From Euglena gracilis (Eukaryota): a stretch of DNA of 64,000 bases. The stretch is from the NCBI GenBank assembly GCA_039621445.1, contig CP154954.1, positions 4,516,714 to 4,580,713 on the forward strand, given 5' to 3'. A program made the translations under genes and the position numbers. Below are positions 195 through 48,782 of the stretch, in pieces. Below the pieces are notes generated by a model that saw nothing but the letters and a program-made list of their open reading frames with translations, did no database searches and was not told the origin of the DNA. Position 1 is the stretch's first letter; each line of letters begins with the position of its first letter.

Positions 195-2580
195 CCCCTC
201 GGGGAACAGCAGCCCGTCCACCAGCATCAGGATCTGGACGGGCCCCCAGGACTCCAGCGTGTTGCGCCCAGGGCGGCGCTGGTTTCCAGAAAGGGAAGAT
301 CCCCCTGGGGTTGAGACAAGGAAGACCAGGAGCACAAAAAAAATAACGGATAAGATAACAAAGCGCCTTTAAAAACCATGAATTTCTTGGCCAAAATGAC
401 TTAAAAATCCCTTTAAAGCCTTAAGATCTTTAAAAAAAAAGTTCTCGAAATTACAGCCAAAATGAAGCCGTAAAACCTCGGCAAACCAAAAAGTAAGATG
501 GGGGGAAAATGATTTCTGGCATCACTGGAAGATTGTCAAGAATAGGGTCCTCAACTTTTTTGATTTGACCCTGTTCGATCCCGGGAAGGCTCCCTTTGAA
601 CGTCCATGAAAACACACACCTAGAAATGACTAAAAAAAAAACCTCAGAATACGCCTTAAAACATTAAAACTCTTTAAAAGTTTACGCCTTAAGGAGTACC
701 CTGGTTCTGAGTGTCAAAAATTGATTTTGGGACACAGACTCCAAAACATGCATCTGGTGCGCAAAAATATTCGGAGATGACAGACTCAAGTTAATGTTTT
801 GGACAGGGCCAGAAACGTCGACAAAAAGAATGAATGAATCCTTGATTTTGGTCCCCAGCAGGGATTATTCTCAAAGGCTCCTGGAAAAAGGTGCGGCTGG
901 ACACCCACCCTCCCCACTTGGGGATGGGGGTCCAGAGGGAGGGGTCCGGCCGGCTGGGAGCTGGGCCCGGCGGGGACCAAAAAACCCAAATTCAGTTGGG
1001 TTGGGATTTTTAACCAAAAGTTGAAAGGGAAAACCCAAGCCCGACCCAAAAGAGGGTTTTTGGGGGCAATTTACCCCCATTATTTCAAACTATTTTCAGG
1101 CCCAGCTTTGCTTTGCTCTGCTTCGCTGGCTTTGCTTTGCTTTGCTTCGCGCTTTATTTCAGTTGGGGGTGTGGACCCCCCAGGGGGGGGTCTGCAGCCT
1201 GGCTGGGAGGTGCTGGCTGGAAAAAAGTTGCTGTCTGGCTGGACCCCCGGGGGAGGGTCCCCTCCGGCTTCAGCTGGTCCCCCTGGAGACGAAGTTTCAT
1301 TTCAATATTGTCATAATTGTTTGTTGCAATTATTGTTGTTCAAGTCTGGAGACCGCCTTCATCGTGGAGACTGCGGTCCACATTGATTGACTTGCATTAC
1401 ATTTGGAATGTGCCCAGCAGCAGCATGCTCAGCAGCTGCGGGAGCAAGGCTTCGACTTGAACGCAAAGGTTGCGGGTTGGGTCCATGGCGGCACCGATGG
1501 CAGTTCCCCAGGGTGGGCCCTGACCCTGGTGTGCGCGCTGCACAGAATTGAACTTCTCGTGGTCCTTGTCGTCCTTGCTCCCGGCACGGGCCTTCCATCC
1601 CATTCCCCATGAGATCCAGGGTGGGTGCCAGAAGGGAAGAGCCTTCTTGCAAATGCTGGGCCATTTTGGGCCGTTTTTGGGGTCAAAAAACCGAAGTTTC
1701 CAAAAAAAATACTCAGAAATGAAGCAAAATCAAAAGAAAACTTCTGGAGTCCGAAATTGAAGCACTTACGATGACTATTCAATGGTATTTTGATTTCCCC
1801 GCAACGCCTGGCCCGAAATATGGCCGATTTACGGCCGAAACCAGTGGTGACTTAGCCGTTTTCGGGATAGCGGGGCACAGATTTTTTTACAGGAGAGTTG
1901 ACAAAAGTGGACATCCCGAACCCTTGGGGGGGGGGGATTCGGGATGACCACTTTCTTTCTTTCTGGAGATCAGCTTTAGGAGCAAAAAATTGCTCGGTAT
2001 TTTTTGCGATAAATAGGAAAACCACCCAAACTGATCCTCCCCCGCGTGGGGAGGTGTTCAGTGCGAACCCCCTCACCCGGCCTTAAGAAAACCTCTGGAG
2101 AGCTGCCCACTGGAGTGAAATGAAGCAGATCCGTACAACAGTCTGTGGAGAAGCCTGTGGGCGGCATACAGCGCCGGGTACGGCACGTTGTACTTCTTGC
2201 GGGCGTTCATCACGAGGGTCATCAGGTACAGGTTCATGAACCAGGACCAGGCTTGTTTTTGCCAACGTGGGGGGGGTGCTATGAGCAGGTGGGCAGTCAC
2301 CCCCCCCCCGGTCAGTTCTGGCCCTGGTGCCTGCTGACCCAGCCAATTATCCCTTGAAATGGCCATTTTGAGGCCCCGGTGCCTTCGGCAACGGGGCGTG
2401 TGCTATAGCACGACCCACCCAAAACCCGAATAGGTCGAAAATGCCCTTCCCCCCTGCCTGCCTACAGCACCCCCCCCCCCGGGGTGAGCTTCGTCAAAAA
2501 AACAAAAAAAGGAAGCCTGACCAGGAGAGCCCGATCACCAGCACCACGTACCCATACTCGTCTGGGATGACGATGGCCAT
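195..2580 (-). CDS. MAPEG-family microsomal glutathione S-transferase 3-like gene (multi-exon, 3' part probably outside window)
   Basis: Exons 2523-2580, 2161-2242, ~1526-1585 and ~195-263 splice to MAIVIPDEYGYVVLVIGLSWFMNLYLMTLVMNARKKYNVPYPALYA..GSKDDKDHEKFNSVQRAHQNTLESWGPVQILMLVDGLLFP, containing the MAPEG motifs ARKKYxVxYP and FNxxQRAHQNTLE. The exon 2/3 junction and end of exon 4 are unresolved. Confidence 0.92.
264..1525 (-). other. Nonconventional intron 3 of MAPEG gene
   Basis: CAC CAG|GGT-CAGGGC...GCCCTG-GGCGC|AAC ACG; the junction is fixed by the conserved HQNTLE motif and no sliding repeat is present. Confidence 0.85.
2243..2522 (-). other. Nonconventional (non GT-AG) intron 1 of MAPEG gene; body 2248-2519 is a diverged MITE
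   Basis: Minus strand T|GGT-CAGGCTT...AAGCCTG-GTCCT|GG; removal restores L-S-W-F-M. Flanks ACCAGGAC (2240-2247) / ACCAGGAG (2520-2527) are a 7/8 TSD. Confidence 0.85.
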
Positions 2581-3689: not shown

Positions 3690-6600
3690 ACGCTTCAGTT
3701 GGTAGCACACGTGTGACGTGGGGATGGTCTGGGACGGCGTCATTCGGCGACGGTTTCGAACCGCAACCTGGGGCCATCGCAGAACGACAGAGAGCACTAC
3801 GGAGGCCTTCCGAGTGGGCCGCAGGCTCAGCCGTGCCGAGCTCCACATACGCTGTAGCAGCTGCGACCACAGGCAGGACTGCAAAGGACGTGATGGCCCC
3901 ACCCACAACCTGCTGGCTGGCGGCAATTCACTGGGCAAATGATTGGTGGCGCACTCCCAAAGGAAAGCAAGCCAACACATTCCATGAGATAAATGCAGCG
4001 AGGTAGGCAGAAAGAAGCCAAAAAAAAACTTTGCAGACATTTACCCGCCCTCCCCCCCGGGCAACTGTCGCGTGACAAATTGGGCAGCACGGAGGGGGGT
4101 GACAATTTCCCGGGTGACAATTTGGCCGGCACAGAGGGGGGTGACAATTGCCCGGGGGCGTCATTTATGCCGAAACGTTGTTGGGCACTTCCCAAAGCTC
4201 CACAACAAAATGGAGTCGTTCAAAAACATTAGCTTGGGAGTGAGGGGTCTGGAAAATCTGGTGGTCCCTTCAGATTCAAAACAAACACATTGCACATCCA
4301 ATCCTGAGCACATTTGCTTCAGATGGACAGACTGTCGTGCCTCATCGCAAACAGACTGGCAACACCTTTGGAAGAGGACTGGTAGCACACAAAACAACAA
4401 CAAATAAATTAACAAGATTATGGGATGTCATGTGAGCATTGTCTTTCGATGATGTGATCGCCATCAAATGAGATGACGTACAAACAGTGCATACGTGTGC
4501 CATGCCCCCATGTATGCTGGCCCTTGTCCAAGACCGACACCGCCTGTATAAGACCCCCATCCATAAAAGACTTTGAGGGAACGGGGGGTCCTTTGGGGGG
4601 GGGGGCATGGTACCCCACGCCAAAGTCCAGGAAAACTGCGGTTGACACGAGAGGGGGATGACATGCACAAGCGTTGTTGAGGAGAAGGGGAAGGCGTTTG
4701 CAGGCAACGACAGCAAAAACGAAAAAGAAGGAAGGGGAATAGCAGGTGTTTCTCGACTCGGCCACCGGAACACTTTCAGGTGCGGAGCGAAAGGCGGGCC
4801 GTTGCCGGTCTGGGTGCTTCAGATGCCACGCCGCCCTGGCGCCCCGCAGCATAGCCCTCATCCTGCTAAGGACCGCAGCAGCGGTTTTTAAACACCTGAA
4901 AGGGCAGTCAAGGCGGGGCGGGCACCACGGCTTGGGGGAGACGGCATGGGGGGAGATGCCTAATCCCGAGAGGGTCTTGGGGTCGAAACCTCTGGGCTAC
5001 TGTGGCGCAGGCGACGAGGCACCGGAAGGCGTTGGACACCGGGGCGGGCATGGCCGGGCGGGCCGTCGTGTTCGCTGGCAGCGGCTCATCCCCGAGGGGC
5101 TCCCGCCCTCCAGCCCACGTGCTAATCCCACCCCCCCCCCCCGCTTGAGAAAACCCCCAGGACGACCAACCAAAGCACGACGTATAACCCGCCCCCGATG
5201 AACAAAAACGAAGGGCGCTGGGCACGGTTTTCAGGGCGCAAAATCCCCAAACTGATTTTTGGCAAATGCCATGTGAACACCCATGAGCAAAAATGCCATT
5301 ATTGACAAAGTTTGCCAAAACTTGACAATGCAGGGTTTGGGGGCATTTTGGGGTTGGATTCTCACCAACAAATCCTTGACCACCTGTACCTCTTCAGCTG
5401 ATCTGATCCAATAAACCCCGGGGGTTTTGCAAATGGGGGGGGGGGGTTAACAGTTTTGCGAATATTCAGACACTGCATTTCGAACCATCATAATAATATG
5501 CAAATACCTTGCGGCGTTTTGGTCCAGATCGGCCAATCAGAACTGCCAATCAGAATAGGCTGTTCGACAGTGCACATTGTGAACGGCGGGCGTTGGAGGT
5601 GAAGGAGAATGCCATGAGCATTTTTACTGTTGCTTGAGTGTAGACTTCTCCTTAATGTAGTTTTGGTCTCCCTGGACCAGTTGATGGCTGAGTTGATACT
5701 GTGCTGCCAGAAACATTCCAAAAATGCTTGGATATTGTCCATTGGCCAAAGAAAACAGCCCACAAGTAACAAATTACTGGTGCAACTGCCCCTGTTTCAC
5801 AGTGCACCCAAGAGTGCCCCAACTTTCAATCCGCGAAGGAGGACAAGGTTTTTGGCCTAAATTTTGGCACACATGGTAGGGACCCCCCCACACACAGCAT
5901 CGTCGTTGTCAACAGGGTGGCAGGGGGTCGGTAGACCTCACCCAACCCACCCACACACCGACCCTTCCACAAGAATTGGGCCGGGCGGGGAGCAGATGGC
6001 CAACACCTTGCCGCCGTACGTGATGCCTGTCTGTTGCAGGGTGTGGCCGTCGGAGCACTGTCGGCCTGCGGAGAGCGGCTGTTGAGGATGGACGGGTTTG
6101 AAATGGGGCAGTGCTCGAGGGGTGGAAACGGGCGAAGCTTTATGCCCCCTGCGAAACTATTCTCCGCCGGGACTCGCTAACTGCCACCGTGGACCCATTC
6201 CTCCTCCCTTGTCCAAGGCGCAGAAATTTTCTACGGATGTGCAGTTGACAGGGGGGGTTCAATGACACGGTGAGTCAATGCCACAATGCATGAATGAGAA
6301 GCCCCTGTTGCCCCAGAAAGTGCTGTTGGCACAGAGGGTCGATGGCACGGTGTGCCTTAGACAGGGGAACCCCTCAGGGAAACTGGTAGGAGACCTGCGC
6401 CTATGAGGACAGGTCAGCAAGTTCGCAGCAGGGACAATTTCCTGGGGGGGGGGTCGGGTCTGAGGGAAAAGGTGCACATCTTTCGACCAACCAACACAAA
6501 AATCCAAAAAAAATTCAGAAGCCTGGAGACAAGGCTCAAATTTCTAAACCTCAGAAGATCATTATTGTTTTCAAAGAAGAGGAATTGCGATATCAGGTTG

Positions 6601-8802
6601 GTGGGTGCAAGGCGAGGAAACGCTTTCCAAGAGGACAGGTCAACAAGCAAAGAGGGGAAGAGCAATTTCCGGGAGGGTGGGCAGCCCTGCAAAAAAAAAT
6701 GGTGTGGAAATCAGACATCTCTCTAAGGTTTTGCGAACCCCCCGGGGGGGGGGGAGCTGCAGCCAGCCCCGATTTGGGCCCAGCCCAGCCGCAGCCCACC
6801 CCACCCCCGGGGGGGGGGGGGGGGGGTGCTGCTAGTCCTAGCTAGCCAGCCCCTTTTTGGGGGTCCAGCCCAAAATTTTTCGGCGCAAAGCGCCGAATTT
6901 TTTTGAAAAACTGTGTTCAAAAGTGGCCAAAAATGGGTTTGGGGGGTGTTTGGGCCATTTTTGGGGGGTTTCAGATGCATCATTTTTTCAAAACTGTGTT
7001 CTGCAGGACATTTTTGGGCATTTTTCTGATTTCAGTTCAGCTCGCCCCGGTTCGGGTCCAGCCGGGGTCCAGCCCCCCCCAGGGGGGGGGGGCTAGCCAG
7101 CCCAAATTTCTAGCCAGCCCAAATTCCTAGCCAGCCCAAATTTCTAGCCCTAGCCCAGCAACCCCCCGGGGTCCTTAAAGAGATGTATGGTGGAAATGGT
7201 AGAGCGCCAAGAGGGAGACACAACAGCGTCGGACCTTGCACCACCAGTCGCACATTCCAGTTGCCCTCCGGCAGGACGGTTTGCCGGAGGTGGTCCTTCA
7301 GGTCGCCAATGCTCTCGTGCCTGAGGAAGAGCAGCGGATGGATTCCGTGTATTTCTGATGTTTCTGGTGAATGTTTCTCTGAAGGTGAGGGGATCGTTTC
7401 CCAGTGTGGACCGTTTCGTGTGTGTTTCACGAGGACCTCCAAAATGGGAACAATGAGGGAGTCACCTGCCAAAGCGCACCACCACAGGGCCTTCAGATGG
7501 GCGGGTTTCCGAACGATCATGAGCAGGGTCAATGATGTGAGAACTGTGGAATAGGCTTTGTTTTGGCCAAGGTAGAATCCCACAAGGATTCAAGGTGAAG
7601 CCAGTTTTGAAGAGATTAGGCTTTGGTAGGGGGGTGGCAGAGAAGGGGGGGAAGACAAAGAGGAAAGTAGCGACCCAACAACATGGTGGCAGAGAAAAAG
7701 ATAACAGAACAGAATACTGGGGCGCGATATGATCAGGCATTTGCTTAAGGACCCGGGGGGGGGGGGGGTACTGGCTAGCCAATCGGCTAGACACTGGAAA
7801 AAATGAACTAGCTAGAACCCTCCCCCCGGGGGAGGGGGGGGTCCGGGTGTCCCCCGAACTGGAAAAAAAATTTTCCTCCGGCGCACAGCGCCGGAGGAAA
7901 AATGAGGTTTTTAATAGGTTTTTGGCTGATTTTGTTCCAAAAATTCCCCAAAATGGACAAAAACGGGCATTTTTGGCCATTTTGGGGGGTCCCAAAAAAA
8001 TTTTCCGCGCTTCGCGCCGGTCACTGGAAAAAAAATTTCCACTAGCTAGCCCTGCTAGCATACCCCCCCCCTGGGGGGGGTCTGCTAGAAATCCCACTAG
8101 CCAAATTTGGGCTAGTTGCTGTCCACCCCCCCGGGGGGGGGGGGGGGTACTGCAATCCCTTAAGCAAATGCCTGGATATGATTCCATCCCTGTCAAAAAC
8201 TGAGTCAACCTACCAAACTTTGTTTGGCCCAGCAGCTCTCCCCCCCCTGCCAGGGGTCGCTGCTAGCCCAGCCAGCCGGAAAGGCTGGACAGCCAGCCCA
8301 AATTTCCAGCACTCCAGCAATCCCCCTGGGGTCCTTAAAGAGGTGGTTGATCGGGTTCCATCAGCAGCTGACAGAACCTTGCCACCGGCACAAAATAAAA
8401 GGTATTCAAAAATGGTCACAGTCCTCAGTTGCACAGAACAGAACTGGCTACGTATTTATCACCCTGTTTGTCCAAAATGGAAACCAATTCGCATCAAAGA
8501 AATCTAGAAAGACATCACAAACAGGGGTTTTTTTAAGACCGGGAGGGGAGGGGGGGAGGGGGTCGGCACCCACTGCAAAACCTCAATGAGATGTGTGACT
8601 CGTGGAATGACAGATGCCGATGCCGTAACTGTGCTACAACGAGATGTGTTTGCCTTGGCCGCCATCCCCCACCCCGCACACAGCCGCCCTGTCCACGGGG
8701 CAGCGTCACCGCCACGAAGAAGCGAATGGGCAGACCGCTGGGCGCCGCGGAATGCAAGACCGCGGGGCCCTCGATGGAAATGGCCACTTCGCCGTTTTCC
8801 AT
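3690..8802 (-). CDS. Putative ubiquitin-like-domain protein with C-terminal hydrophobic segment (multi-exon)
   Basis: Exons ~7235-7354 and ~6006-6065 join via GT-AG intron 6066-7234 to IHPLLFLRHESIGDLKDHLRQTVLPEGNWNVRLVVQGRQCSDGHTLQQTGITYGGK, a UBL-like pattern. In-frame GT-AG intron 4896-4989. Other candidate exons 8690-8802 (MENGEVAISIEG), 7466-7545, 4990-5120, 4745-4895, 3690-3908. Ends uncertain. Confidence 0.6.
6712..7189. mobile_element. hAT-like MITE, family B
   Basis: TIR CAGACATCTCTCTAAGG / CCTTAAAGAGATGTATG; TSD GTGGAAAT 8/8; second copy inverted at 42021-42502. Confidence 0.9.
7734..8174. mobile_element. hAT-like MITE, family A (CTAG-rich)
   Basis: TIR CAGGCATTTGCTTAAGG / CCTTAAGCAAATGCCTG; TSD GATATGAT 8/8; near-identical to 14223-14669 and 16741-17183. 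Confidence 0.92.
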
Positions 8803-9795: not shown

Positions 9796-12700
9796 TCACG
9801 CGCAGGAGCGCAGGTGGGCGGCGACCTCCCCGCAGCGGGCCTCCACCTTCAGGCAGGCCAGGTCGTCGCCGCGCGTGGGCCCAACGTTGGCGATGACGAT
9901 GGGCACCTTGTTGGCGTGGGCGTGGCGGATGTACCTGGGCCATGGCAGGGGATACGCAGGAGATGGGGCCAGGGCTTTTTTAAGACCTGGGGGGAAGGGA
10001 AGGTCCCCCCACCCACCCAGGGTTCGATATAAGGAGAGGAGGGGGGGGTGGTCCGGACCCCCCCCTGGGGGCCAGGAGGGGGGGGGGTGGGGGGGGACAC
10101 CCCCCCCCACCTAAACAGTGGCGCGGTCAGGGTGACCGATTTTCGGCCCGGCGCTTCGCGCCGGGCCGAAAAATTTTGACCCCCCAAAACGACCAAAAGT
10201 GCCATTTTGGGCACTTTTTGGGCAAAAATTGGCCAAAAATGCAAAAAATTTTCGGCGCAAAGCGCCGGAGGAAAAAATTGGCCCTTTTTGGGGGGGGGGT
10301 CCCGGGTACCCCCCGAGGGTCGGTCCGGACCCCCCTTGCAGGTGGGGGGGGGGGTGGTCCGGACCCCCCCCTGCGGGCCAGGAGGGGGGGTGGGGGTTGG
10401 GGGGGACACCCCCCCACCTAAACCATGTACGCCCTCCTTATATCGAACCCTGCACCCACCCCCTGGGGGGCCGGGGGGTGGGGTCCCGGGGGACCCACTC
10501 AATTTTCCCCGAAAATGGCCAAACAATCGCGAAAAATGCTAAAAATAGCACCTTTTCAAAAAAATTTCACCGCCGAAAAGTATTATCTCCCCCCCCCCCC
10601 CCGGGCTCGGCCGGACACCCACCCTACCCCCCCCCCGTGGTCCAAGACTAAAAAAAAACCCTGGATAGGACAGATGTGAACCAGATTGACTTCAGCCCAC
10701 CAGAGAAGGTGCCAATCAAAAAAATAGTGTGTTATTTAAGAACAAAAGAAGGGGGGCCCCGACACTTTGGGCCGAGGGCATACCGAAAGATGGACGGGAC
10801 CTGCAGCGACGTGCCCAGGGCCAGGAGTAAGTCACTCTGGTCCAGCGGGGGCAGACCGCCCCCACCGGAGAGCCATCCCCCAGCGAGGCCGTTTGGGGCA
10901 AATGCCGGTCCCTTGCCAGCATCGGACAAGCAGCGACGCGCCTTTTCAGTTGGCCACACTACCACCACACGCACCCTGTGGGGGGCGGCAGAGTACCGCG
11001 TATTCTGTTCCAAAACAGACCGGCATTCTATGCATCAGAAACGCCCCACGTCAGAGGGGGAATTGATATCGGAGGCCAGCGGGCAAATTGCGGCAAACTG
11101 CGGTTATCGATTCCCCCCTGCCCTATGCCAGCAAGCTGTGGAGGAGCCAGCCTGGACTGCTCGTAGCCGCACTACAAGAGAAAGGTCATGGATTGGGCAG
11201 GGACGAAGGGACGAAATGGGGTCGGAGTTCTGAGAGAAACACCGGCTCTTGGCGACAAGACTTGGAAAGATTTGCCAGAGAACGTCCTGTCTCTTGTTGT
11301 CAAACGACTCACATTTTGCATGAATTTCAGATTCAGTATGCGAATGATGATATCAAATAAAAAATATTACGCAAAATATAATGTAAAAATATAATAAATA
11401 CAATAAATGCAGAAAATCATTTATAATAACATATGACTATTTCATTTTTATTATTATAATATAATAATATAATTATTATATTATTGATTATAATTATTAT
11501 ATCTAATTACATATTTATAAATATAATGCAATAATTATCATTATAAACAGCCAGCATTGCCACGCCTGCACAACGTGTTTGGGGATGCTCTCCCCGAACA
11601 TCACGACGTGCGGCTTCAGCACGCCGCCACACGCCGTGCAGTCAGGCACGGCGAAGAGCTGGGGGTCAGCCGCGAGGCGCCCGCACTCGAGGCCGGGGCA
11701 GTTTTGCAGCACCCTGTATGTAATGAACCCCTCCGGCGAATGCCTAACACACTGTGTATTGGACGCTCAAACCGAGGAGCTGAACGTCATCAGGTGCATA
11801 TTTATTTTCACTTCTGTAGGTTTATTTTAACATGTGTTCTCTATTCTGGAAATATTCAATGGAAGAATGTCATAATGGGGGGTTGTTCTGGGACCTCAAA
11901 CCAAAGCGCATTGTTTAGATGTGGGCTGGTATGGGCTGGGGCATCGAGGAGGGTCCGGGAGTTTAAGCCTGTCCCCCGCCCAGCCAGATGCGGGGGGAGG
12001 GGGGAAAGGCGCTTGCCCCGTGGGGCAGGGGCCTCGGCCAGACTGCTCTCAGCGTCCCCGTCGGGCCGCATTTGGGCCCAATCCCGCAGCTCATGGCCCA
12101 CCCCAGGCGTCTGCTCCAGGACCCCTGGCTGGGGCTCGGAACACCACTGGCTCGGCCCAAACCTCCCCCGCCACGTCGGGGTGTCGCCCCGGCTGCAAAA
12201 AAAAAAATACCTCCTCCAGCCACCGATGCGGAAATCAAGTGTGTTTTTAGCAAATTTTATTCCCGAAAACCCCAAAAATGCCCAAAGCTGGCGTTTTTGG
12301 CTGGGGTTAAGGGCAGACCCTCACTGCAGCCCCAGAGTGGTGGGGTGGTCCAATACAAATCCCACCGGCCGGTGTTTGGACGGGTTGCAGACCAGCCGCC
12401 CGCCTCCGGGGGCAATCCTCAAGCTAAGGCCTGGCCCACCCACCGTGGGTTGGCAGCGGCCATGCGGTGCTGCAGCTCCGTCCGCGGCGAAACAGCGCCG
12501 CACTGGGGGGGGGGGGGCGAGTACCTCTGGTCAACCCTGGCCCAGGGTCCAGCATCGCCCACCATCGTCGACAACAAAACACTTTGTTGCATGGCTGCAT
12601 TCACGCGCATGGCCATTGTGTGTACACGTTTTCCTATTCCAATAATCACCCCCCCCCGAAAGGACACGTTTTTGAAAGTTTCTTTGGGAGTTTGGCGAAA

Positions 12701-15700
12701 AAATGCACTGCCGTTTCTCCCGATCAGAGGACCGGAAGTTGCCTCCCTTGGGTAGCTGTCACCTCGGGCGTCCATGGGTTTGGTGGCAATTCGTAACAGT
12801 GGGCACCCCTTCAGGTCGACCCCCCGCCTCCTTTGCACTTCAACCCCCGCCGCAAAGCCAAATCCATCCACTTCGCCCTGGCCGAATCGGAAGCACGCGA
12901 GCTCCCGATGCCACCTTCGGTGGCCACATTCCTGCTGCATTGCTGCAACCCGTCCGGATGAATTTGTGGCAGAAAGCACCTTAACGCCCCTTTGGGGGGG
13001 GGGGGGGCGGGGGGTGCACCGGGGGGGAGGAGGGCATATGGGGCCACCCAGTTCCACGTTTAGGGAAAGTCAAAGTTGGGGTCAGGGTTCCGGCCTGACT
13101 CCCGGTAGGCTCCCATTTTTAGGAAGTTGGGAAAAGTGAGGCCGCATTTTGGACGCAGTCAGGAATTTAGGCAGAATTCGAACAATTTTTTTTGCTAAAA
13201 TTTATTTCCAAAAATTTTCTCGAACGTAGACATTTCTTCCGGCCTAACTTGGACCCTGAAGTTGACCAATTTCGGCACGCCGATCCCAACCCTGATCCTA
13301 TTCCTACAAATAGGACAACAGCCTCCCCGAATCCAGTGCAAGATATCCACTTTGGCTGCGCTTCCCAGCCGCCGGACCAAACCGTCGAGAAATGGGACCG
13401 GGTGGCCCTGTCACCCCCCCCCCTTGGAACACTCCAATGCCCCCCCTCCAGCTGCCAGGGGAGCTCCCTGCCGCATTTGTTCACCCTTGAAAATCGACCA
13501 AAAAGCTAACACGGATGATTATTTGGTAGAAATATGCCAGAACCCTAAGCTTCCTTTGGCTGGAGCGCCGAAGAAAAAAAAACAGAGCCTTTGGGAGGGG
13601 TCTTGGGGTGCCCAGGAGTTCTGGACCACTTCGGGGCGGACAGTTGTCCCCTTCCTCTGTGATGCCCACCTTATCACCCAAAGGTCACTGCCACCCCCCC
13701 CCCCCGTGGGAAGAAGATACGCACTGGAAATCGCGGCATGCCTAAATACCCCCCAAATACAAAAGCCCCCCACCCCGCTTCAAATTTGGACAGGATTTCA
13801 AAACCTTCAGGCTTTATACTGGGGGGGAAATCAAACTTTTTGGGGTGGCCTGTGACCTTCGGCGACCTTCAATTTATGGCCCGATTAAGTGGGTGCAGCC
13901 AAGGGAGGGGATGCAGCAACTTGGAATGTGGCTGCCGACGGTGGCATCGGGCAATTGGACACCGACGGAGGTCGCGTGCTTCCGATTCGGCCAGGGCGCA
14001 GTGGATGGATTTGGCGTTGGGGCGGGGGGTGAAGTGCAAAGGGTGGCGGAAGGGTTGACCTGAAGGGGTGCCCTCTCGTGTCAATCCAGTCGCATTTGCC
14101 TTGGGGCACGAATTGCCATCAAACCCATGGACACTGCCCTGTTTCATGTCGTTGCTCGACCCAACCAGATCTGAGAGGCCCCCCACAGGGCTTAAGCGTA
14201 CCTCTGGGGGATGTATGGGAAGCAGGCTTTTGCTTAAGGACCCCCCCGGGGGGGGGGGGTACTGGCTAGCCAATCGGCTGGACACTGGAAAAAGTGGACT
14301 AGCTAGACCCCCCCTCCCCCCCGGGGGGGGGGGGGGGTCCGGGGGTCCCCCGGACTGGAAAAAAAATTTTCCTCCGGCGCTGCGCGCTGGAGGAAAAATG
14401 AGGTTTTTAACAGGTTTTTGGCTGATTTTGTTCCAAAAATTCCCAAAAATGGCCAAAAACGGGCATTTTTGGCCATTTTTGGGGGTCCCAAAAAAATTTT
14501 CGGCGCTTCGCGCCGGTCACTGGAAAAAAAATTTCCACTAGCTAGCCCTGCTAGCAGACCCCCCCGGGGGGGTGGGGGTCTGCTAGAAATCCCACTAGCC
14601 AAATTTGGACTAGCTGCAGCCCAGCCCCCCCCCCCCGGGGGGTACTGCAATCCCTTAAGCAAAAGCCTGGTGGGAAGCCTTGGGGGGGTAGCCCCCCCCA
14701 CATCGAAACTGATATGGGTCCGGAATTTTTTTGGTTTTGTGGACAGGCAAAGGGCCAGATACAAGGCCAAAATTGTTGGACATCCCTGATTTTTCTTTGA
14801 AATGTTTTTTTTAAAAAAAATTTGAACACTTCTGACTTGGAAAACACAAAAACATCAAAAGGTAGGCAATGTGCTCAAAAGTGAAGCAAAACGTGTTTTT
14901 TTTTTGCTCATTTTCCGGTGGCAGCACTGGAAAAAAGTTCACGCTATTTTTGGAACCTGCCGAGGAGGGGGGCCCGGACACCCCCTCCAACACATGGGGA
15001 TCCAGATCCCCCCTATCACTTTACCACCCCCCTAGTTGCACTATGGCTGTGTCTCTGTTCATGGCCGGCGCTAACTTCGCTTCTGGCCCAGTTTGCTGTA
15101 TGGCCAGGTACCCCTTACACCCCCACCTCACCGCCCGCCCGGGGGGGGGGGTCGCCCCCCATACCCAATACTGACAGCCTTCATATCCCTGGGTCCAGCT
15201 CAGAGGCTGGAAAATATGGGCTGGCTGGAAAAGCCACCCCCCCCCCCGGGGGGGATGGGTTCCTACAGCTTAAAGGTCCTGCTAAGACGTCCTGGCCCCC
15301 CATCACAGCGGTGAGGGATGGGGCAAGGGACCTGGAGGCAGACTACGGAGCGGGCGTTGCCGTGCAGCTCCGTGACGGCCCGGCTGCCCGCCGCCGCGTG
15401 CAGCCCGTCCACGTTCTGCGTGAGAATGGCGCCACCGCTGCCGCGCCACGGCGGCCGGCGGGAGAGTGAGCTGGTCCGTGTGTCCGTTCCGGGGCTGGCA
15501 GCCATGGTTTGCTCACCCCCCCCCAGGGAAGTGGTCACCGAACAGGTTCGTTCGCTTCTGCTTCAGGTGCAACGGCCGTCGAAAAGCACCACACAAAAAA
15601 AAAATAGCAAGAACACAACCAAAAAAAAACTAAAAGAATTTCATGTGCAGTTCTGGATCTGGGAAAAATCAAACCGCTAGCTTAAAATGCACGGCGCAAA

Positions 15701-17976
15701 CCTTCACTGGGAACTTCCCATGGCGGCGGGGGGAGGGAGCTACCTATCTGCCCCCCCCCCTGCCTCCCGGTCCATGAGGTTGTCCCCTGGCAAGAACCAG
15801 CGAGTGCAAACCGGGTGGCAAATCTGTGGAGCTTTCCAAAGTGGCCAAGCTGCCATGTTGGGCCGACAGTGTCTTCTGGGCTGTGTGATCGTTTTGTGGG
15901 GGTGAGAATTTCACAGGACGGGGGGTGGGACTGGATGGCCACAATTCTGTCATCCAGCGGCAGCGTTGGGTGTGGTGGACCCATCCGCGTGCCTCCAACT
16001 CAGCCAGGGCGAAGTGTATGGCGTTTGGCTGTGGGAGGGGGGGTGGAGGGGGAGAGCCGGCTCACATCCGAGGACCACAAAGCACTTGCTATTGTCATCC
16101 CGTGTCTCGTCATTGTCATCAAAGAGTTGTCATCCCCTGTCCTGCAAGCAGCCATCCCAGCCAACCGAGCACTGCCAGCCCGACCTTGCTCGGCGGTTCC
16201 AACCCTCCAAGTATGTTGCAAAAGGAGGCCAAAAAAAAGCTGGGAACTATATTTTCAAGAAAGGAAACAGGGGGGAGACAAACCTTTGCCTGGGCAAACC
16301 GGTCCCAGCCGAGGTATGCCCTCGCCCAATATCGCTGCCGCTTCTCGGGCGACTTCACAAACTCCTGGTACGTCGTGGGCTTGTGGCCTGAGAGACAGCA
16401 GCGCCACTGTCCTCCGAAGAAGACTTTTCCAGACAGGAGACAACTCCATGGAAAGGATGGTACTTTCAGTCATGTGGCAACCCTCTCTTTTTAGCATCGG
16501 GGCCCGGAAGCAAAATCAATCGGGCTTTTTCGACGGATGACAGCTTTGAATTTCATTGACATGAACGTTGACAAATCAGACGAAAGAATCGTACACAAAA
16601 TAATCAAATAAAAAATCATGCACACATAAATAATGATGAAAAAGAACAATAGGCTGATAGGCACAATTTGCTGAAAGTGTCAGGAAACACTTACCAACCT
16701 GAATGGGAAATGTAAGGTTTAAAATTGTAAGGGTGGTGGCCAGGCTGTTGCTTAAGGCCCCCCCGGGGGGGGGGGGTACTGGCTAGCCAATCGGCTAGAC
16801 ACTGGAAAAAGTGGACTAGCTAGACCCCCCCTCCCCCCCCGGGGGGGGGGGGGTCCGGGGGTCCCCCGGACTGGAAAAAAAACGAGGTTTTTAACAGGTT
16901 TTTGGCTGATTTTGTTCCAAAGATTCCCAAAAATGGCCAAAAACGGGCATTTTTGGCCATTTTTGGGGGTCCCAAAAAAATTTTTGGCGCTTCGCGCCGG
17001 TCACTGGAAAAAAATTTTCCACTAGCTAGCCCTGCTACCAGACCCCCCCCCCGGGGGGGGGTCTGCTACACCCCCCCCCGGGGGGGGGGGCCTGCTAGAA
17101 AACCCACTAGCCAAATTTGGACTAGCTGCAGTCCAGCCCCCCCCCCCCGGGGGGGGTACTGCAATCCCTTAAGCAAAAGCCTGGTGGTGGCAACTGGATC
17201 GCAAGCTTCTTCTGGGGACCCAAACAACCCCCTCCGGGACACTGTCATGTCTCAGAAACTAAACCCCCCCAAAAATAAGACCGGGGGTCCATTTCATGGG
17301 TTGGTTGCTGGAAAGCCCGAGGGGGGGTCTTATTCATGGGGGGGGTCCATTTTATGGATTTTTGCTGGAAAAATTTTCGACCCCCCAAATGTCCAAAAAT
17401 GACACCCCAAAATACCACTTTTCAAAAAATTCGGCGCTTCGCGCCAGACAAATAGGGTAAAATATGCTGAATTGTGTGAAAACAGTCCCAAAATAGCAGA
17501 TTTTCCCCCCCCAAAATGTACCATTTTTCAAAAATCTGGCGCTTCGCGCCGGCAGGGGGGGTCTTATTCATGGGGGGGGTCCATTTCATGGATTTTTGCT
17601 TGGACCGGCCAGGGGGGGTCTTATTTTTTGGGGGGGTCCATTTTATGGGGGGGGTCTTATTTTGGGGGGGGGGGTTTATCAGGTATAAGGTCCCTGGTAC
17701 TCACCAACGTGCCAGGTGACAGTTTCCGGGGGGGGTACTTATTGATGAAGGGCCACACGTAAACCACTCAGGGAGGGAGACGCTGCAGGGGCTCGGCAGT
17801 CCAACCACACCTTGGGACAGGCTGCCAGACGGGGAGCGATAGTCAGGGATGCCGGACTCCGTGCTGCAGCCCGCCCCCGTCACGACCAGCAGGCGGCGGA
17901 CTTGCCCGAGGAGGGCTGTCAGCGCACGCACGGCCTCGGGGGCCAGCGGCGGGGCGGCCGGCGCGAAGCCGGGCAT
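9796..17976 (-). CDS. SIRT4: NAD-dependent sirtuin, class II (SIRT4-like), ~9-10 exons
   Basis: Exons 17811-17976+, 16284-16387, 15972-16028, 15332-15427, 12437-12502, ~12048-12098, ~11563-11676, (10927-10941?), 10784-~10845, 9796-9934 give [40 protein letters not shown], CxxC, RPDGD, [17 protein letters not shown], GTSLQV and NVGPTRGD. Five introns are clean GT-AG (16388-17810, 16029-16283, 12503-15331, 9935-10783 verified in frame; two junctions unresolved). Start may be further upstream. Confidence 0.95.
9970..10663. mobile_element. hAT-like MITE, family C, carrying a nested element
   Basis: Ends CAGGGCTTTTTTAAGAC / [29 protein letters not shown] / GATAGGAC 6/8. Confidence 0.8.
10018..10452. 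mobile_element. hAT-like MITE, family F, nested in 9970-10663
   Basis: Perfect 19-bp TIR CAGGGTTCGATATAAGGAG; TSD CACCCACC 8/8; diverged copy at 18781-19152. Confidence 0.9.
12099..12436 (-). other. Nonconventional intron 5 of SIRT4; body 12104-12433 is a diverged family-A MITE
   Basis: Perfect 8-bp direct repeat GCCCACCC (12096-12103 / 12434-12441) around CAGGC...GCCTG; splicing gives [22 protein letters not shown]. Confidence 0.85.
12771..14131. repeat. Inverted repeat pair (12771-~12945 and ~13910-14131) containing decayed copies of SIRT4 exon 3
   Basis: TCCATGGGTTTGGTGGCAATTCGT mirrors ACGAATTGCCATCAAACCCATGGA; both arms contain CCATCCACTxCGCCCTGGCCGAATCGGAAGCACGCG. Confidence 0.85.
14223..14669. 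mobile_element. hAT-like MITE, family A
   Basis: TIR CAGGCTTTTGCTTAAGG; TSD ATGGGAAG / GTGGGAAG 7/8. Confidence 0.92.
15428..15971 (-). other. Nonconventional intron 3 of SIRT4
   Basis: CAC CAC|ACC-CAACGCTGCCGC...GCGGCAGCGGTG-GCGCC|ATT CTC; 11/12-bp terminal stem; splicing gives WVHHILTQNVD. Confidence 0.8.
16741..17183. mobile_element. hAT-like MITE, family A
   Basis: TIR CAGGCTGTTGCTTAAGG / CCTTAAGCAAAAGCCTG; TSD GTGGTGGC 8/8. Confidence 0.92.
17260..17678. mobile_element. MITE with TAAACCCCCCC-type TIR and internal sub-repeats
   Basis: TAAACCCCCCCAAAAATAAGACC / GGTCTTATTTTGGGGGGGGGGGTTTA; repeated GGGGGGTCTTATTCATGGGGGGGTCCATTT; similar architecture at 45249-45635. Confidence 0.65.
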
Positions 17977-23303: not shown

Positions 23304-26290
23304 CGCAGGTTGCCACTTTGATGCCACCTTCCATAAGCAGTCAAGTAACTGCACTTCAAAAAAACCACATGTTTGGTGAAGGCTCCAAATACAAATTATG
23401 TGTGCAGAAATACGACTTATATGACTACACAAAAAAATATGCCACTCCCTGCTTGGAATCTTCCTTTGGGAGTGAACTGCCCCATTTAATTGCGCGGTGC
23501 CCAAACTGGTGTGCGGTTGCCCAAATAAGTATCACACCCATGAGGGTCCGAAACGTCGGTCCAATAATGTGCACACCCCGTGCACTTAACCCCCCCTTGC
23601 CTATCGACCGGGTTCCTACAACCCCCGACCAAGGGGGTGGGCATAGGCACCCCCTTACCTGCAACCCTCGACTGGGGGTGGTCGTTGTCCAGGGGTGGTC
23701 AGTGGGCAAAGGGGGGGGGGTAAATGGGATGGGGTACAGTTGGGAAGGGAAGAAAAAACAGAAACAACTTTGATTTTGGGGAAGTGTGGGAAATACTGCA
23801 ACCAATAAACAATGCCAAACTTTGGGTCGCATGCGTGGGGAAAAATGACAGGGGACGTGCATGGGCTTTGCGTGGCAGTCTCCTGCGGGGAGGATTCCTT
23901 TGCACAGGAGGCCTCTGACTGGGGGCCCCGATTTTCTTTGTTGAACGCAGGCCGCCGCTTCTTTTCTCCAAACCCCATTTGTTTGTCAGCAAACCGGAGG
24001 CAACGCTGCTCAGCCGCCCTCAAACATCTCATGTCGTGCAATGGTTTCATGTGTTGCAACCATCATTTGAGAATACGTTGCTTTCCCTGTGTGCAACATA
24101 TGTGTCACGCAACACACAAATGTCCAACGCGCCAACACACACAGCTGCAAAATGCCACTCATAAACCCGCCCCTCATGATAGAAGCATGGGCAGTGTCAA
24201 AATAAAAGCACCCCCCCCCGCCACCGAAGGCAACGGCCCACTCAAGCACACCCGCATTTTGACAGTAATTCTGAAAGGAAATCAACAAAAATCAGACAGG
24301 TGGTCTTGGAGGCGGAGGTCCGCTAAGAGCGCACCCGCGCTTCAATTGAGGGGGAACATGCAGCACCCTCGCCCCCCTGACCCCCTGACCACAGGCACCA
24401 AACCTTTCGGCAGGGCAGAACGGGAAGGCCTGGTGGGGTGGGGACAAATTTCTTTAACAAATCCGCCTGGCGCCGAAGGCGCCGTGAAAAATTTGGGGGG
24501 GTCAGAAATTGGTGCTCCCGGGAATACGGGGGGTGGGGGGGTCGACCCCCCCTCCACCCACCACCCTGGGCTGGGTGTTTGGCCAATTCCCGTTCTGCGC
24601 TGGCACTCGGAGGGGCCCACACCCAGGCAGGCAGATGGGGATGGCGGGGGGCCCGGGCAGGTACCGCACCCGCCGCAGCACGCCCTCCTCCCAGTCCTCC
24701 ACCACCACCTGCGGCGACGCGGCGAGCACCGCCGGCGCGGCCAGGCCGAGCTCCGTCAGGCGCCGGGCGACGGCCGCCACGTAGTAGCTGGGCCGCAGCA
24801 GCGCCGTTGACCGGGGGGCCCCAGGCAGATACGGCCGACCCCCCAAATCAACTTTTTGGGACCCGGGGGAGGGGGGGGGTCCAGACCCACTCACCCACCC
24901 ACTGGGGGGAGGAGGGAGGAGGGGGGACCACTTTTGGTGGCCGATTTTCGGGTCCAATACGATTCGGTTTGATTCTCAAATAAACAAAGGAACCTAACAA
25001 TAATAACAACAGCTGCTGCAAGCACAACAATAACAACATCAACAACAACAACAAAAATTATAATTATAAAATAATAATACTAATAATAATAAGATAATAA
25101 TTATTCTAATAATAAGAATAATAATCTAATCTAATAATAAAGAATAATATAAAATTTTGCCATTTTGAGGGGAAGCGTGCTTTTTGACTTTTCCAAGATG
25201 GATGTTGAACGGGGGGTGAACGATGGCGGGATGTGTGCATGGAGACACCGCTGGAGTTGCGTTGAGGACCGCCACGTCCACCCCCAGGTCGGTCAGGTAC
25301 TTGAGGCGCTGCTGCAGCGTCGGCAGCTCGATGTTCAGGATGTTGGGTACCTCGTTGAGGGCGTCGCCCACCCGGATTCCATTGGATTGCAGGAGAGTGT
25401 CTGCAGGGCACAAGACGAGGTCGGCCAATGTCAAAAGCAAAGGAAATATCAGTGTCTTTTCCTATTAACTTTAAAAGAAACAAAAAATGCCAAATGGTTG
25501 CCTATTGTCGGGGCAAAGAGGGGGTGTGAAGATGGTTTGGTCGGCGCCAATATGTGCGAATTTTCTGGGGACAGAAAGTCAAAATCAATAAAACCTCGGG
25601 TCGACAGCCAAATCGCAAAGTGGAACGCTTTCTTCCTATTATTGTTGCCGATTCTAAAAATCAATCAAACAAACAAAAACCCCCATCATTTAACGCGCCT
25701 GGAGGGAAATAACGTTCCTTTTCGAGTTATGATCCCAGATTATTCGCCCGCCCAAAAAATAGTCGAGGCATCAAAACTTCCTCAAAAGGCAGGGTGAGGA
25801 CGAGGCCTTGTTTGTAAAATATCCGCCACGCGACACAAACCAAGGAGTCCCAATGCAAGGCCCGGCACCGTTACCCAACGCCCTCCGTTGGTCGGTCCGC
25901 AGCACCTCCAGCAGGCGCCGTACCTCCCCCGCTTCTTTTTCTAACAGCCGCGTGATGGCTAACAGAGCGCGGTGGACCATTCCCATGGTCTCCCTAACCA
26001 CCTCTTCCCCTCCCCCCCCACTTGGAAGTCGTCGCCGAACAGGTTTTCGGGGATCACATTGTCGGCGGGGGGAACACATATTTGTGCGCACACGTTCATT
26101 TCTGTGTGTGCATACGTTGACAGGTGTATCTAAACACGTACTCTGCGCCCATACAGTTGGCGAGTACAGAGGGGGAGGCAAACCTGCTGAATAAAAAAAA
26201 ATATATATATATATATATATAGAGATATATATATATATATATATAGAGATATATATATATATATATATATAATAGATATATATATATATA

Positions 26291-26334
<44 letters not shown>

Positions 26335-26348
26335 TATATATATATATA

Positions 26349-26392
<44 letters not shown>

Positions 26393-29300
26393 TAAAGCCA
26401 GGTTGGTGAGTACAGGCACAGAGGCCAACTTTCGGGCAGGACTGGCAGGATATTAGATGACAGGGAGGGGGGTGAGTTGGGACCCCATTCCTCCCCCCTT
26501 TTATCGGCCATTTCGGTCCATTTTTTGATCGTTTTGGCCAAGCATTATCAGCTTTTGTCCATTTATTGCCGCATCGTCAAAATCAATATCTAGCATCAAT
26601 TTTAATTCATTTTGGGCTGTTTAAAAAACCATTTTAGGGGGCCATTGGCCTTTTTCAACGCCATTTTGACATTTTCACCCATTTTATGGTGGTCATCCCA
26701 ACAGACTACTAAAAAAAAAGCTTCTCTCAAATATGCAAATGCAAAAAAAGAGAAAATTGATCACACAATTATTCCCAAAAGTATTGAACCACCTTTTTCG
26801 TGCTTTGAAGCCCTCCTCCCCCATCAGCGAGTTTAATTTTTTTGCAGCCGCACAAAGGGCGGATGAATGGCAACAAATTTTTGCCATTCAGGGGTGTAAA
26901 AATGGGTTAAGTATGGGATCAAATGGGTTGGAAAAGGGCTCGCCAGCTCAAATTTTGGGCGCAAAATCCATTTTTCATAATTGGCCATTTTGGGAAATCT
27001 CTTCGGTTTCGATTTTTGAGTTCCGGGTTCATTTGAACCCCATGGGGCCAGCACCAGCTGGAAGACCTTTTTGGGGGGCGAGGGGGGGCGCAGCCAGCAG
27101 CATTTTCAGACACAGAGACAGCCCAGAGCTTCCAGCCTCTGGGCTGCCCCACGCCCTGCCCCCTTCAAACCCGAGCGGGGATCCGGAACCTCCCTGGTAA
27201 CAAAAAAGAATTTTCACCACACTTTTCACTGGACAAATTTCGGAGAAAAATTTTGTATGTTTTGGGCCCATTCTTTGAAATAAAAAAAATGCATGGGAAC
27301 GTGACTTTTTGAATAAAATCTTCCAGCACAAAGCGCCAGGAAATCTTTTTGGTATACGAAGTGCAGGCAATGCCAAAAAAAATTTGGAATGCTCACCATG
27401 GAGGCTGGGAACCAGTTTTGGGAAACAAAACCAACCGCCGGTGGATACGGCTCAACGACTTAGAGTGGGGACCTGGAGGGGGGGGTTTGGACCCCTCAGA
27501 CCTGTACAAAACCCTCAAAATAATATAAAAATAATAACCCTGAGGACAAGAGTGGAACATTTTTCAATTTTCAAAAATTCCATAAAAGTTCAGTCAGGGA
27601 CCCTGACTGATATTTCAAAAGCAGCACAAAAGTTAGCCAGCAATCCTTGGGCATATTCTAGCCGAAAAGGGCCAACTACGCACCAACCTGCCCCCCCCCC
27701 CTCCCCAGAGAGTCAGCTGGTACAAGCCTCGTTGTCAACCGAAGAAGGCCGAGTAGTGGACCTTACAACGTGACAAGTCAGCTGTTGCGGGCCCCAGGAG
27801 ACAACTTATCATCATGATCGGTGAGAACCTCACGGGGGGGGGGGGGGGAGGATGCAAATTGGCGAGTACCAGTCCAAAGGCCAACTTCTGGGGGTACGAT
27901 GCGCACGCAGTTATACCTATCATCGCAATTTCCATTTGCATCCCCACGGCTGTTTCGCCCACCCTCAGGCTGGGGGTTCCGGCAGGCCATGGCCATCACC
28001 CCGGCCTCGTCGAGGAGGGAGGCAAGAGGAGCGAGGTCCTCCGCGGGCTGGAAGGCGAGGGGCAGGTGGACCCCCACGGCGGGTGGACTGGGCTGGGACT
28101 GGTTAGGCATAAGTCACGCCTCAGTTGCACGCTTGGGCTTTCCGTTTGTGCCATTTATGACCCAACCGGATGTTTTTTAGGAGGTAATTTTTTTTAGGAA
28201 TCTCACATTTGAATCTGTTTGAATCTCGGAAACTTTCGGGAAATGCCTCCACAAGGGCCGATTGTTGGGGGGTCCCTCCCAGGGGGATGGGTGTTGTGGT
28301 CATGCTTGTGCTTACCGACCGGGGGGGGGGGGGGGGGGCTATAGGGTGCCTGCCCCAAGCAGGCACACCCCCCGGGGGTGGGGAAGGGGTCCGGGGGGAT
28401 ACCCAGAAAATTTTCATTGAAAATGGCCTTTTCCGGGCCCGCGGCACCTTTGCCGAAGGTGCCGGGGTTAGAGGGGGGTGCCTGCTAGGGGCAGGCACCC
28501 CCAAAACCCTACGCCCCCCAGGGGGGGGGGGTCGGATCAGGTGCTATGGGGTGCCTGCCCCTAGCACCCGCCCCCATGGGGTAGGGACCCGACTAAGCAC
28601 AAGCCTGGTTGTGGTGTCCCCCCAGGGTCTTAAAAGGAAGCCTGGTTAATGACCTAATTGACCAAAATCCTCCAAAAGAGGGCCGAAAAGCAGCAACCAG
28701 CGTCGCTTAGTGACTCCCCAAGGCAAGGGGAGTCCGTTTCAAGGGCTGAATATTTTGGGCTGGCTGGAGAGAGAGGGCTGCCTGCTGAACAACCCCACCA
28801 CAGGAGCTGCACAGATGGGCCATTATGAGCAAAAATGTGTCCGAAAGGGATGCGCAGCTCAAATTTTTTTTAGAAAATCGATTTTTTTGTACGATTGGCA
28901 GTTTTGGGGCATTTTTACAACTTCGATTTTTTTTGACACCCTGTCATCTGCCATCTGTCACACAGTCAGAGGACCCGAAAACAAAATATCCGTTACCATC
29001 CAGACGTCCTTCGGGCTGCTCAACAGATGGAAAAACGCTCCCCGGATTGGGCGTCTGGCACTGTGAAAAGACCCTTGGCTGGCTGGATCCCCCTACCCGG
29101 AGAATAGAGCCCCCTCAGGCCGCAGCGCCGACTTGGTGGCAACAGAAAACCACCCCATTTACCAGGAAAGTTTAGGAAAGCTTCAAAACAACTGATTCCT
29201 ACCAGAGAATTTCAGGCCATCGTCCACTGGTCTCTGGGTGCCCCGGTGGTTAGCGCGACGGACAGCCCACCTGCCTGCCCAAGATGCCACAACCCCACAG

Positions 29301-39565: not shown

Positions 39566-39855
39566 CATGCTTGTGCTTACCAACCGGGGGGGGGGGTGCT
39601 ATAGGGTGCCTGCCCCAACCAGGCACCCCCCCCCGGGGGATAGGGGTCCGGGGGGGACCCAGAAAAAATTCATTGAAATGGCCTTTTCTGGGCCCCCGGT
39701 GCCTTTGGCGCCGGGGTCGGAGGGGGGTGCCTGCTAGGGGCAGGCACCCCCCAAAACCCTACCCCCCCCCCCGGGGGGGTCGGATCAGGTGCTATGGGGT
39801 GCCTGCCCCTAGCACCCCCCCGCGTGGGGTAGGCACCCGACTAAGCACAAGCCTG
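39566..39855. mobile_element. hAT-like MITE, family E
   Basis: Ends CATGCTTGTGCTTA / TAAGCACAAGCCTG; TSD GAGGGGAC 8/8. Confidence 0.9.
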
Positions 39856-42502: not shown

Positions 42503-42855
42503 TCCCAAACCCTCATCTGATGCATCCCTATTTGTCTTCTGTCTGCAAATGTCCACTCGAATTCTTATCTGTGCCAGTCTGAATTATGGCGATCATCCGC
42601 ACAAACACAAATGCATCCTTGCGCCTCCACCCCCAAAAATCCACAAAGACATCCGGTGAAGGGGCAACCCCCTTGGGTTCCCGGGCCTGGCAACAGCCTG
42701 GTCGCCACTGGTGCGCACAAAGCAGCCGGCCCCTCTGTCGGGGGTCTGCAGGAGCACCCCGCCTTCCACGGGCACCGGTGTGACGGCCGTGAGGAGGGGG
42801 CCAGCCGCAGCGTCCACCAGAGAACGGATGGGGCTGACATTTGAGATTTGGGAGC

Positions 42856-48781: not shown

Positions 48782-48782
48782 A

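Follow-up and report, generated by a model that had tools for sequence, protein, structure and literature searches.

A MITE-like element that most likely serves as a nonconventional intron in an MGST3-type gene of Euglena gracilis

Nonconventional introns of euglenids, reportedly the subject of earlier work by Milanowski et al. in 2014 and 2016, are the closest described counterparts of the locus considered here. They are described as having CAG at positions +4 to +6 and CTG at positions -8 to -6, ends that pair with each other, and junction repeats resembling target duplications (PMC11282704). Knock-ins in E. gracilis defined a splicing code, 5'-N3CDG-/-CH'GN5-6|R, in which the 5' spacer of 3 nucleotides (nt) is strict and the one on the 3' side has 5 nt, although 6 are tolerated (Nomura et al., PNAS 2025, PMC12501133). 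According to the same paper, mutations of CAG or CTG abolish nonconventional splicing, and the splicing of fully synthetic introns with the code features in E. gracilis indicates that the code is sufficient. Such introns account for 71.8% of the introns of Euglena agilis (PMC12501133), and those of tubA have been reported as circular RNA in work cited in PMC11282704 and PMC12501133. The present analysis concerns 64,000 nt of the Euglena gracilis genome (CP154954.1:4,516,714-4,580,713, forward strand), hereafter the window, to which all coordinates refer. At 2248-2519, within a minus-strand gene of the MGST3 type, the window carries a 272-bp element with the features of a MITE (miniature inverted-repeat transposable element). 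We estimate a probability of about 0.8 that a MITE inserted into this gene and is removed from its transcripts as a euglenid nonconventional intron.

A MITE origin of nonconventional introns was proposed in 2013, when no euglenid transposons were known (PMC3935182), and papers of 2024 and 2025 repeat the proposal as unproven, with the remark that "origins remain unclear" (PMC12501133). The openly searchable literature, as distinct from subscription journals and supplements, yielded statements of the hypothesis and no published demonstration of nonconventional introns in dispersed families with 8-bp duplications. Both the kind of intron and the idea are therefore already known, and the introns of the MGST3 gene and of a neighbouring sirtuin gene are a clean example of what that idea predicts.

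The interval 2240-2527 consists of the element and two 8-bp flanks. The element, placed on the minus strand with the gene that contains it, has the ends CAGGCTT.../...AAGCCTG (its start is CAGGCTTGTTTTTGCCAAC and its end GGAAGCCTG) and is delimited by these ends, its flanks, its terminal inverted repeats and its relatives. The flanks, ACCAGGAC at 2240-2247 and ACCAGGAG at 2520-2527 (GTCCTGGT and CTCCTGGT, respectively, on the gene strand), are identical at 7/8 positions, as the first-pass annotation of the window had recorded, and represent the two copies of a target-site duplication. A 13-nt terminal inverted repeat is 85% complementary, and internal to it lies a 21-nt subterminal inverted repeat, a G run facing a C run, with 86% complementarity. 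In the predicted minimum-energy RNA fold (-134.3 kcal/mol, z -2.77) the termini are paired, and none of 200 shuffled sequences folded as well. Features by which MITEs are recognized are present: terminal inverted repeats with a target duplication of fixed length, small size (272 bp) without a transposase, and related copies at unrelated loci (39566, 28301, 30267 and a degenerate copy at ~34307-34772). No transposase domain was found by Pfam in the 343 scanned open reading frames of at least 80 amino acids, to which 31 simple-repeat frames of the window did not belong; apart from SIR2 exons belonging to the sirtuin gene, these scans for transposase or further genes gave a single weak Hema_esterase match below threshold and nothing more. 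An Rfam scan of the window gave no family at gathering score.

The whole window was scanned for ends of the form CA[GT]G[CA]...[GT]C[CA]TG lying 80-1500 bp apart with 8-bp flanks identical at 7/8 positions or more, and 8 pairs were found, 5 of which had identical flanks. When the flanks were shifted, in five controls, the count was 1-3 pairs, 0-1 of them perfect, and a flank match of at least 7/8 is expected by calculation at ~4e-4 per pair. These figures bear on the suggestion that the 7/8 match at 2240-2527 is a coincidence, to which we return with the relatives of the element.

The element interrupts a reading frame. On the minus strand an ATG at 2580-2578 opens MAIVIPDEYGYVVLVIGLSW, and beyond the element the frame goes on as FMNLYLMTLVMNARKKYNVPYPALYA. 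Two proteins, P0002 and P0123, are colinear with four minus-strand exons at ~2580-2523, 2242-2161, 1579-1526 and 263-196. The family of P0002 comprises 93 proteins (E <= 1e-5), all with PF01124, and where the source has named a member, the name is nearly always microsomal or mitochondrial glutathione S-transferase 3; on this comparison the gene is an MGST3-type MAPEG gene. Exon 1 (2523-2580) encodes MAIVIPDEYGYVVLVIGLS and the start of a W codon, which exon 2 (2161-2242) completes before continuing with FMNLYLMTLVMNARKKYNVPYPALYA. Exon 2 is found with P0002 by tblastn (E 6e-9), and when the exon-2 piece was searched exhaustively against proteins, the only matches were P0002 (66% identity, E 5.9e-4) and a repeat artefact, P0001. 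The 3' end of exon 2 is uncertain because the boundaries of intron 2 are not fixed. Exon 3 (1526-1579), whose 5' end is also uncertain, ends in ...SKDDKDHEKFNSVQRAHQ, and exon 4 (196-263) begins with NTLESWGPVQILMLVDGLLFP, after which the gene continues past the start of the window. Upstream of the start codon, at 2581-2625 on the minus strand, is a C-rich tract ending in CAG (cttgtctccccgcacag), which looks like the acceptor described for spliced-leader trans-splicing in Euglena.

When the element and one copy of the duplication (280 nt) are removed, the frame reads ...GLSW|FMN..., without a gap against 15/15 homologues. At the protein level this amounts to an empty site, since the homologues are contiguous across the junction; the comparison is one of proteins, not of allelic or orthologous DNA. 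The predicted junction in the mRNA would read ...GGGCTCTCCTGGTTCATGAAC..., and RNA reads spanning it ...CTCTCCTGGTTCATG.... The segment so removed would be MGST3 intron 1 (2243-2522, minus strand), which comes first among the introns of the coding sequence. Because of the direct repeat at its junctions the boundary can slide, and every register yields the same mRNA. In the register of the published code the intron starts as ...TCCT|GGT CAG GCTT... (2522-2517), with the 3-nt spacer ahead of CAG, and ends as ...AAGC CTG GTCCT|GGTTCATG (CTG and spacer, 2250-2243), with CTG, the 5-nt spacer and then a purine, G at 2242, as first base of the downstream exon. The pairing of ends that accompanies the code is provided by the 13-nt arms and by the termini joined in the minimum-energy fold. 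The spacers are themselves pieces of the duplication: GGT (2522-2520) is the last three gene-strand bases of the copy at 2520-2527, and GTCCT (2247-2243) is the first five of the copy at 2240-2247. As 3 and 5 spacer bases make 8, the length of the duplication, removal restores the sequence that preceded insertion. The sole mismatch between the copies falls on a base that is exonic in the copy at 2520-2527 (CTC, Leu) and intronic in the other.

No spliceosomal boundary gives the same result. Enumeration from the sequence found no GT, GC or GA...AG boundary (GH...AG) among the nine registers (0-8) that remove 280 nt, and no GT/GC-AG boundary gives the correct mRNA. The element could nonetheless be imagined as a spliceosomal introner of the Aureococcus or Polarella kind, the more so as Polarella introner classes 3, 6, 8 and 10 have an 8-nt duplication and insert in either orientation (Roy et al., bioRxiv 10.1101/2020.10.14.339549), and as one GH...AG pair in the element, GC(2516)...AG(2252), does keep the frame. 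That pair, the only one in frame, leaves 15 nt (CAG + CCTG + 8), or five residues (SAWSW), and an insertion of this type occurs in 0/15 homologues. A dinoflagellate introner of the Polarella type had been the first reading of the locus, and GT-AG, GC-AG and AGGH-in-duplication models were tried before it was rejected. AGGA does occur in the duplication on the plus strand, which is not the strand of the gene; the dinoflagellate spliced-leader motif has no match in the window; and the host is Euglena gracilis, so that the intron is to be classed as euglenid nonconventional and not as a spliceosomal introner. With the evidence of the sirtuin gene, set out next, where an element is removed exactly although no register offers an AG, a spliceosomal introner is a very improbable explanation. 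The first-pass annotation had called the segment "MAPEG intron 1"; both the gene type and the position as first coding intron, reached by the 280-nt removal, hold, with the refinement that the intron is of the euglenid nonconventional and not of the GT-AG kind.

The sirtuin gene supplies a control checked against a transcript. This SIR2 gene, sirtuin-4-like, runs on the minus strand from 17976 to 9799 in at least nine exon blocks, which match P0003, a protein of 288 amino acids whose source name is EG_transcript_17989; the EG_transcript prefix is in use in Euglena gracilis papers, and on this match the host is almost certainly that species. Six of nine exon matches are 100% identical, and outside the identical blocks protein and window differ at few residues, for example in the GRVHH and LHTAAG stretches. 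Solved against this transcript-derived protein, introns 1, 2, 4 and 8 are conventional GT-AG introns, each ending in a C-rich tract and CAG, an intron end described for conventional introns of E. gracilis (PMC11170887). Intron 5 (12099-12436, minus strand) is different: its 338 nt are a MITE of 330 bp (12104-12433) plus 8 bp, bounded as GGC-CAG...CTG-GGGTG|G, and the duplication around the MITE, GCCCACCC, is perfect (8/8). Eleven registers reproduce P0003 exactly, each by removal of 338 nt; not one is GT-AG or has an AG end, and one fits the nonconventional code. A real transcript thus shows the element at 12104-12433, which belongs to another family, to be excised exactly in the absence of spliceosomal signals. 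The claim in the first-pass annotation that a second family had also become an intron is thereby borne out. The intron role of this element is visible only through comparison with P0003, and an empty-site test of open reading frames on the other seven elements recovered no homology-supported reading frame.

Among the remaining sirtuin introns, intron 6 (11668-12038, minus strand; 371 nt) has three possible registers, none of them GT-AG, and reads GCC-GAG...CTC-GCGGCT|G, in which the motifs still pair but lie outside the published CDG/CH'G signature. Intron 3 is without GT-AG in any recovered register, in a solution that needs four residue mismatches. For intron 7 no boundary solution against P0003 was obtained, and five residues (CGYEQ) are unaccounted for. 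Three further MITE copies, at 7734-8174, 14223-14669 and 16741-17183, are 441-447 bp long and 92-97% identical, with duplications matching at 8/8, 7/8 and 8/8; two of the three sit inside conventional sirtuin introns 1 and 4, and the family looks recently active.

A second, independent case of fit to the code is found within the MGST3 gene. The junction of intron 3, RAHQ|NTLE, is fixed by homology and is contiguous in 15/15 homologues. The intron (264-1525, minus strand; 1262 nt) reads GGT-CAGGGC...GCCCTG-GGCGC and is followed by exon base A263, so that it fits the nonconventional code exactly in a position that cannot slide; we estimate the chance of such a fit at one fixed junction at ~1e-4. 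Its flanks no longer match each other (ACCAGGGT and GGCGCAAC), and parts of it resemble repeats at 58472-58561, 37694-37765 and 40198-40258.

The MGST3 element has relatives in the window. Its closest relative is a copy of the family designated E, 39566-39855 (plus strand, 290 bp, duplication GAGGGGAC, 8/8, 5' end CAT in place of CAG). Local alignment of the two gave a raw score of 44, where dinucleotide shuffles of the candidate had a mean of 12.6 (standard deviation 1.8, maximum 21), so that z is 17.9 and none of 300 shuffles reached the score. As a control for composition every homopolymer run longer than 3 was shortened to 3 before alignment, and the score was then 36 against 10.2 +/- 1.5 (z 16.7, 0/300 shuffles). 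With the intermediate relative at 30267-30559 (plus strand, 293 bp, CAGGCTG...TAGCCTG, duplication CCCCCAAC/CCCGCAAC, 7/8), z was 11.1 raw and 19.5 after collapsing, again with 0/300 shuffles, which makes it a relative of roughly the same closeness. The second family E copy, 28301-28607 (plus strand, 307 bp, duplication GTTGTGGT, 8/8, 5' end CAT), is 91% identical to that at 39566, and its similarity to the candidate is weaker (z 7.5 raw and 3.5 collapsed, a score reached by 5/300 shuffles). Reverse complements, and the elements at 7734, 14223, 16741 and 12104, lay near shuffle level once runs were collapsed. Comparison of all elements placed the candidate at z 20 with 39566 and 13.7 with 30267, and BLAST within the window aligned it to 39562-39716 at 68.5% over 162 nt (E 4.5e-14).

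It might be supposed that this resemblance is compositional, produced by G and C runs and a short shared terminus, with the flank match a coincidence besides. The elements are indeed rich in such runs, and the similarity to 28301 shrinks when they are collapsed; that to 39566 and 30267 persists, so that runs do not explain it, unrelated elements and reversed sequences behave like shuffles, and the scan for flanks found 8 pairs where shifted controls found 1-3. Hardly any weight can be given to chance. The three motif blocks that the first-pass annotation had listed as shared with 39566-39855 are all present in both elements and in the same order, and the confinement of similarity to G/C runs, on which it would have withdrawn the relationship, is not what the collapsed alignment to 39566-39855 reveals.

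The eight elements form two groups. One consists of 7734, 14223 and 16741, with 12104 as a distant relative (z 15-24); the other of 28301 and 39566, with 30267 at 77% and the candidate at 76%, a wider group to which the degenerate copy at ~34307-34772 also belongs. Identity of the candidate to family E is 76% over 142 ungapped columns, mainly in the 5' 150 of its 272 nt. In transposable element classification practice, members of one family share about 80% identity over about 80% of their length, and the candidate falls short of this level with family E proper (28301-28607 and 39566-39855). By alignment, then, the relationship is distant, and the candidate is a relative of family E and not a member; the annotation's wording, a relative of family E MITEs, was apt. 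The degenerate copy has ends close to CGGCTTT.../...AAGCCCG and is apparently interrupted by a nested insertion of the "TTTTTTAAGAC..." type, of which there are ~18 short matches across the window. Both family E copies open with CAT (28301-28303 and 39566-39568) and close with CTG, yet have perfect duplications, and Pfam detected no coding sequence where they lie. With CAT for CAG both fail the splicing code in both orientations, which suggests that transposition tolerates a change from CAG to CAT that splicing would not.

Several observations count against the conclusion that intron 1 is spliced. The MAPEG match of the window's own sequence, on the exon-2 piece, is weak (E 0.031, 14.8 bits) and falls under the curated Pfam cut-off. 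The gene runs off the window, so that its integrity is known for four exons, and for intron 2 dozens of conventional and nonconventional boundary pairs are in frame, none singled out. A word search of protein collections with the exon-2 piece matched no protein, and the 93 family members include no EG_transcript MGST3; the gene may accordingly be a paralogue that is not expressed. As noted, resemblance to family E covers mainly the 5' 150 nt. Finally, an inserted element of this kind meets most of the code automatically, the purine being the only extra condition: of the 16 orientations that the 8 elements offer, 9 comply with the code in full, both gene-strand cases among them. The fit consequently indicates that the element can be spliced and does not itself show selection.

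These points lend themselves to a different account, in which the MITE disrupts a dead or unexpressed MGST3 paralogue and is either not removed or removed only through a cryptic GT-AG intron with a frameshifted product. A suitable pair exists, GT(2521)...AG(2252), whose use would take out 270 nt and cause a frameshift; the searches met with no transcript-derived protein identical to the product of the locus; the boundaries of intron 2 are not fixed; and the gene is truncated at the window edge. The only nearby AG is preceded by GGCAAAAACAAG, however, and lacks a C-rich tract, unlike the ends of 4/4 conventional sirtuin introns resolved in the window. The four exons are open and keep the most conserved motifs of the family (ARKKYNVPYP, QRAHQNTLE) though the element has diverged by ~24% from its nearest relative, which would imply continued selection on the gene since the element inserted. 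An element of the same geometry is removed from the neighbouring sirtuin gene, and the published code is sufficient even for synthetic sequences (PMC12501133). A dead or unexpressed gene is accordingly unlikely, and removal of the element as a nonconventional intron is preferred.

The pathway by which a MITE would have become intron 1 can be outlined. A nonautonomous DNA transposon with CAG...CTG ends would have inserted into the region of the MGST3 gene that codes for the first transmembrane helix, with duplication of 8 bp. In the RNA the inverted ends would pair and bring the two exon ends together, and a nonconventional, probably non-spliceosomal machinery would make two cuts, one 3 nt ahead of CAG and the other 5 nt past CTG, in front of a purine. 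The cuts would remove the element and exactly one copy of the duplication, restoring the pre-insertion frame (...GLSW|FMN...), and by analogy with the tubA introns the product may be circular. The pairing and cutting steps are borrowed from the published knock-in experiments, and splicing of intron 1 itself is presumed on the same footing. That end geometry is what matters, as the annotation had suggested, is true in that the ends and not the interior decide; this is already part of the published code, with the added point that the identity of CAG and CTG also counts.

The arrangement within 64 kb gives concrete support to the old idea that nonconventional introns began as transposons. Each of two repeat families has one diverged copy acting as an exact nonconventional intron, with a transcript as verification in one case and homology in the other, while younger copies of both lie outside exons with their 8-bp duplications intact. 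This is the pattern predicted by a transposon origin, which also explains the spacers of 3 and 5 nt. It may be proposed that these spacers are the imprint of an 8-bp duplication made by a single CAG...CTG transposon superfamily, a proposal that, taken jointly with its consequences, appears to us evenly poised. If it is true, each insertion into an exon, in either orientation, would from the start be an intron that can be cut out exactly, provided that base six of the duplication is a purine; such elements would be the ancestors of most code-bearing nonconventional introns; and the process may still run, given that the window has copies 92-97% identical whose duplications are perfect. More boldly, the removal machinery may recognise the same terminal hairpin as the transposase and may have co-evolved with it. 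The question of origin becomes one that a genome-wide count can test directly, and an autonomous element with CAGGCTT ends is suggested as a search target.

Other features of the window stand apart from these genes and elements. A tandem array at 53567-55475 has ~11 copies of a ~163-bp unit, 61-97% identical to the reference copy. Long microsatellite tracts, (TA)n, (CGTG)n, (CATA/CATG)n and CA-rich runs, occupy 26167-26460, 48625-48900, 57409-57860 and 42852-43314. The Hema_esterase match lies on the minus strand at 4164-4427 (E 4.7e-4, 20.4 bits against a cut-off of 25) and is probably spurious.

Among transposon superfamilies, hAT elements make 8-bp duplications, have YARNG termini, commonly beginning CAG, and encode a hAT transposase in their autonomous copies. 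The candidate shares the 8-bp duplication, and its CAGGC agrees with YARNG at 4/5 bases; no autonomous copy lies in the window. Merlin, reported in E. gracilis, has inverted repeats that start with GG and a duplication of 8-9 bp (PMC8101967); it was set aside, since the candidate has a duplication of fitting length but termini that start with CA.

The introner elements of Amoebophrya (Farhat et al. 2021, PMC7789003) resemble MGST3 intron 1 in their non-GT-AG boundaries, in inverted repeats that form hairpins joining the exon ends, and in direct repeats across the junctions. They differ in that the direct repeats are 3-5 nt, without family-specific ends as far as that paper describes them, whereas the MGST3 case has a fixed 8 bp, conserved CAG and CTG, and clear families; an intron of this type was set aside on the length of the repeats and the compactness of that genome. 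A broader parallel is offered by the introners of Aureococcus, Micromonas, Polarella and Symbiodinium. Huff et al. in 2016 are said to have characterized introner elements as transposons that become introns. Like the element studied here, introners are nonautonomous DNA transposons that have inverted ends, duplicate their target and, whichever way round they insert, turn into introns, and removal of the element with one copy of the duplication restores the frame. The difference lies in the splicing, for introners take a spliceosomal GT/GC/GA-AG pair from the element or the duplication, while MGST3 intron 1 has no such pair and follows a rule of structure and distance.

With the euglenid nonconventional introns, finally, no anatomical difference is found at MGST3 intron 1: the positions of CAG and CTG, the spacers of 3 and 5 nt, the downstream purine, the pairing ends and the slidable direct repeats are the same, as is the presence of both kinds in a single gene (conventional sirtuin introns 1, 2, 4 and 8 beside nonconventional intron 5 and intron 6, which has no GT-AG register). 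What the locus adds to the known introns is membership of a dispersed repeat family, other copies of which are non-intronic and keep their 8-bp duplications.

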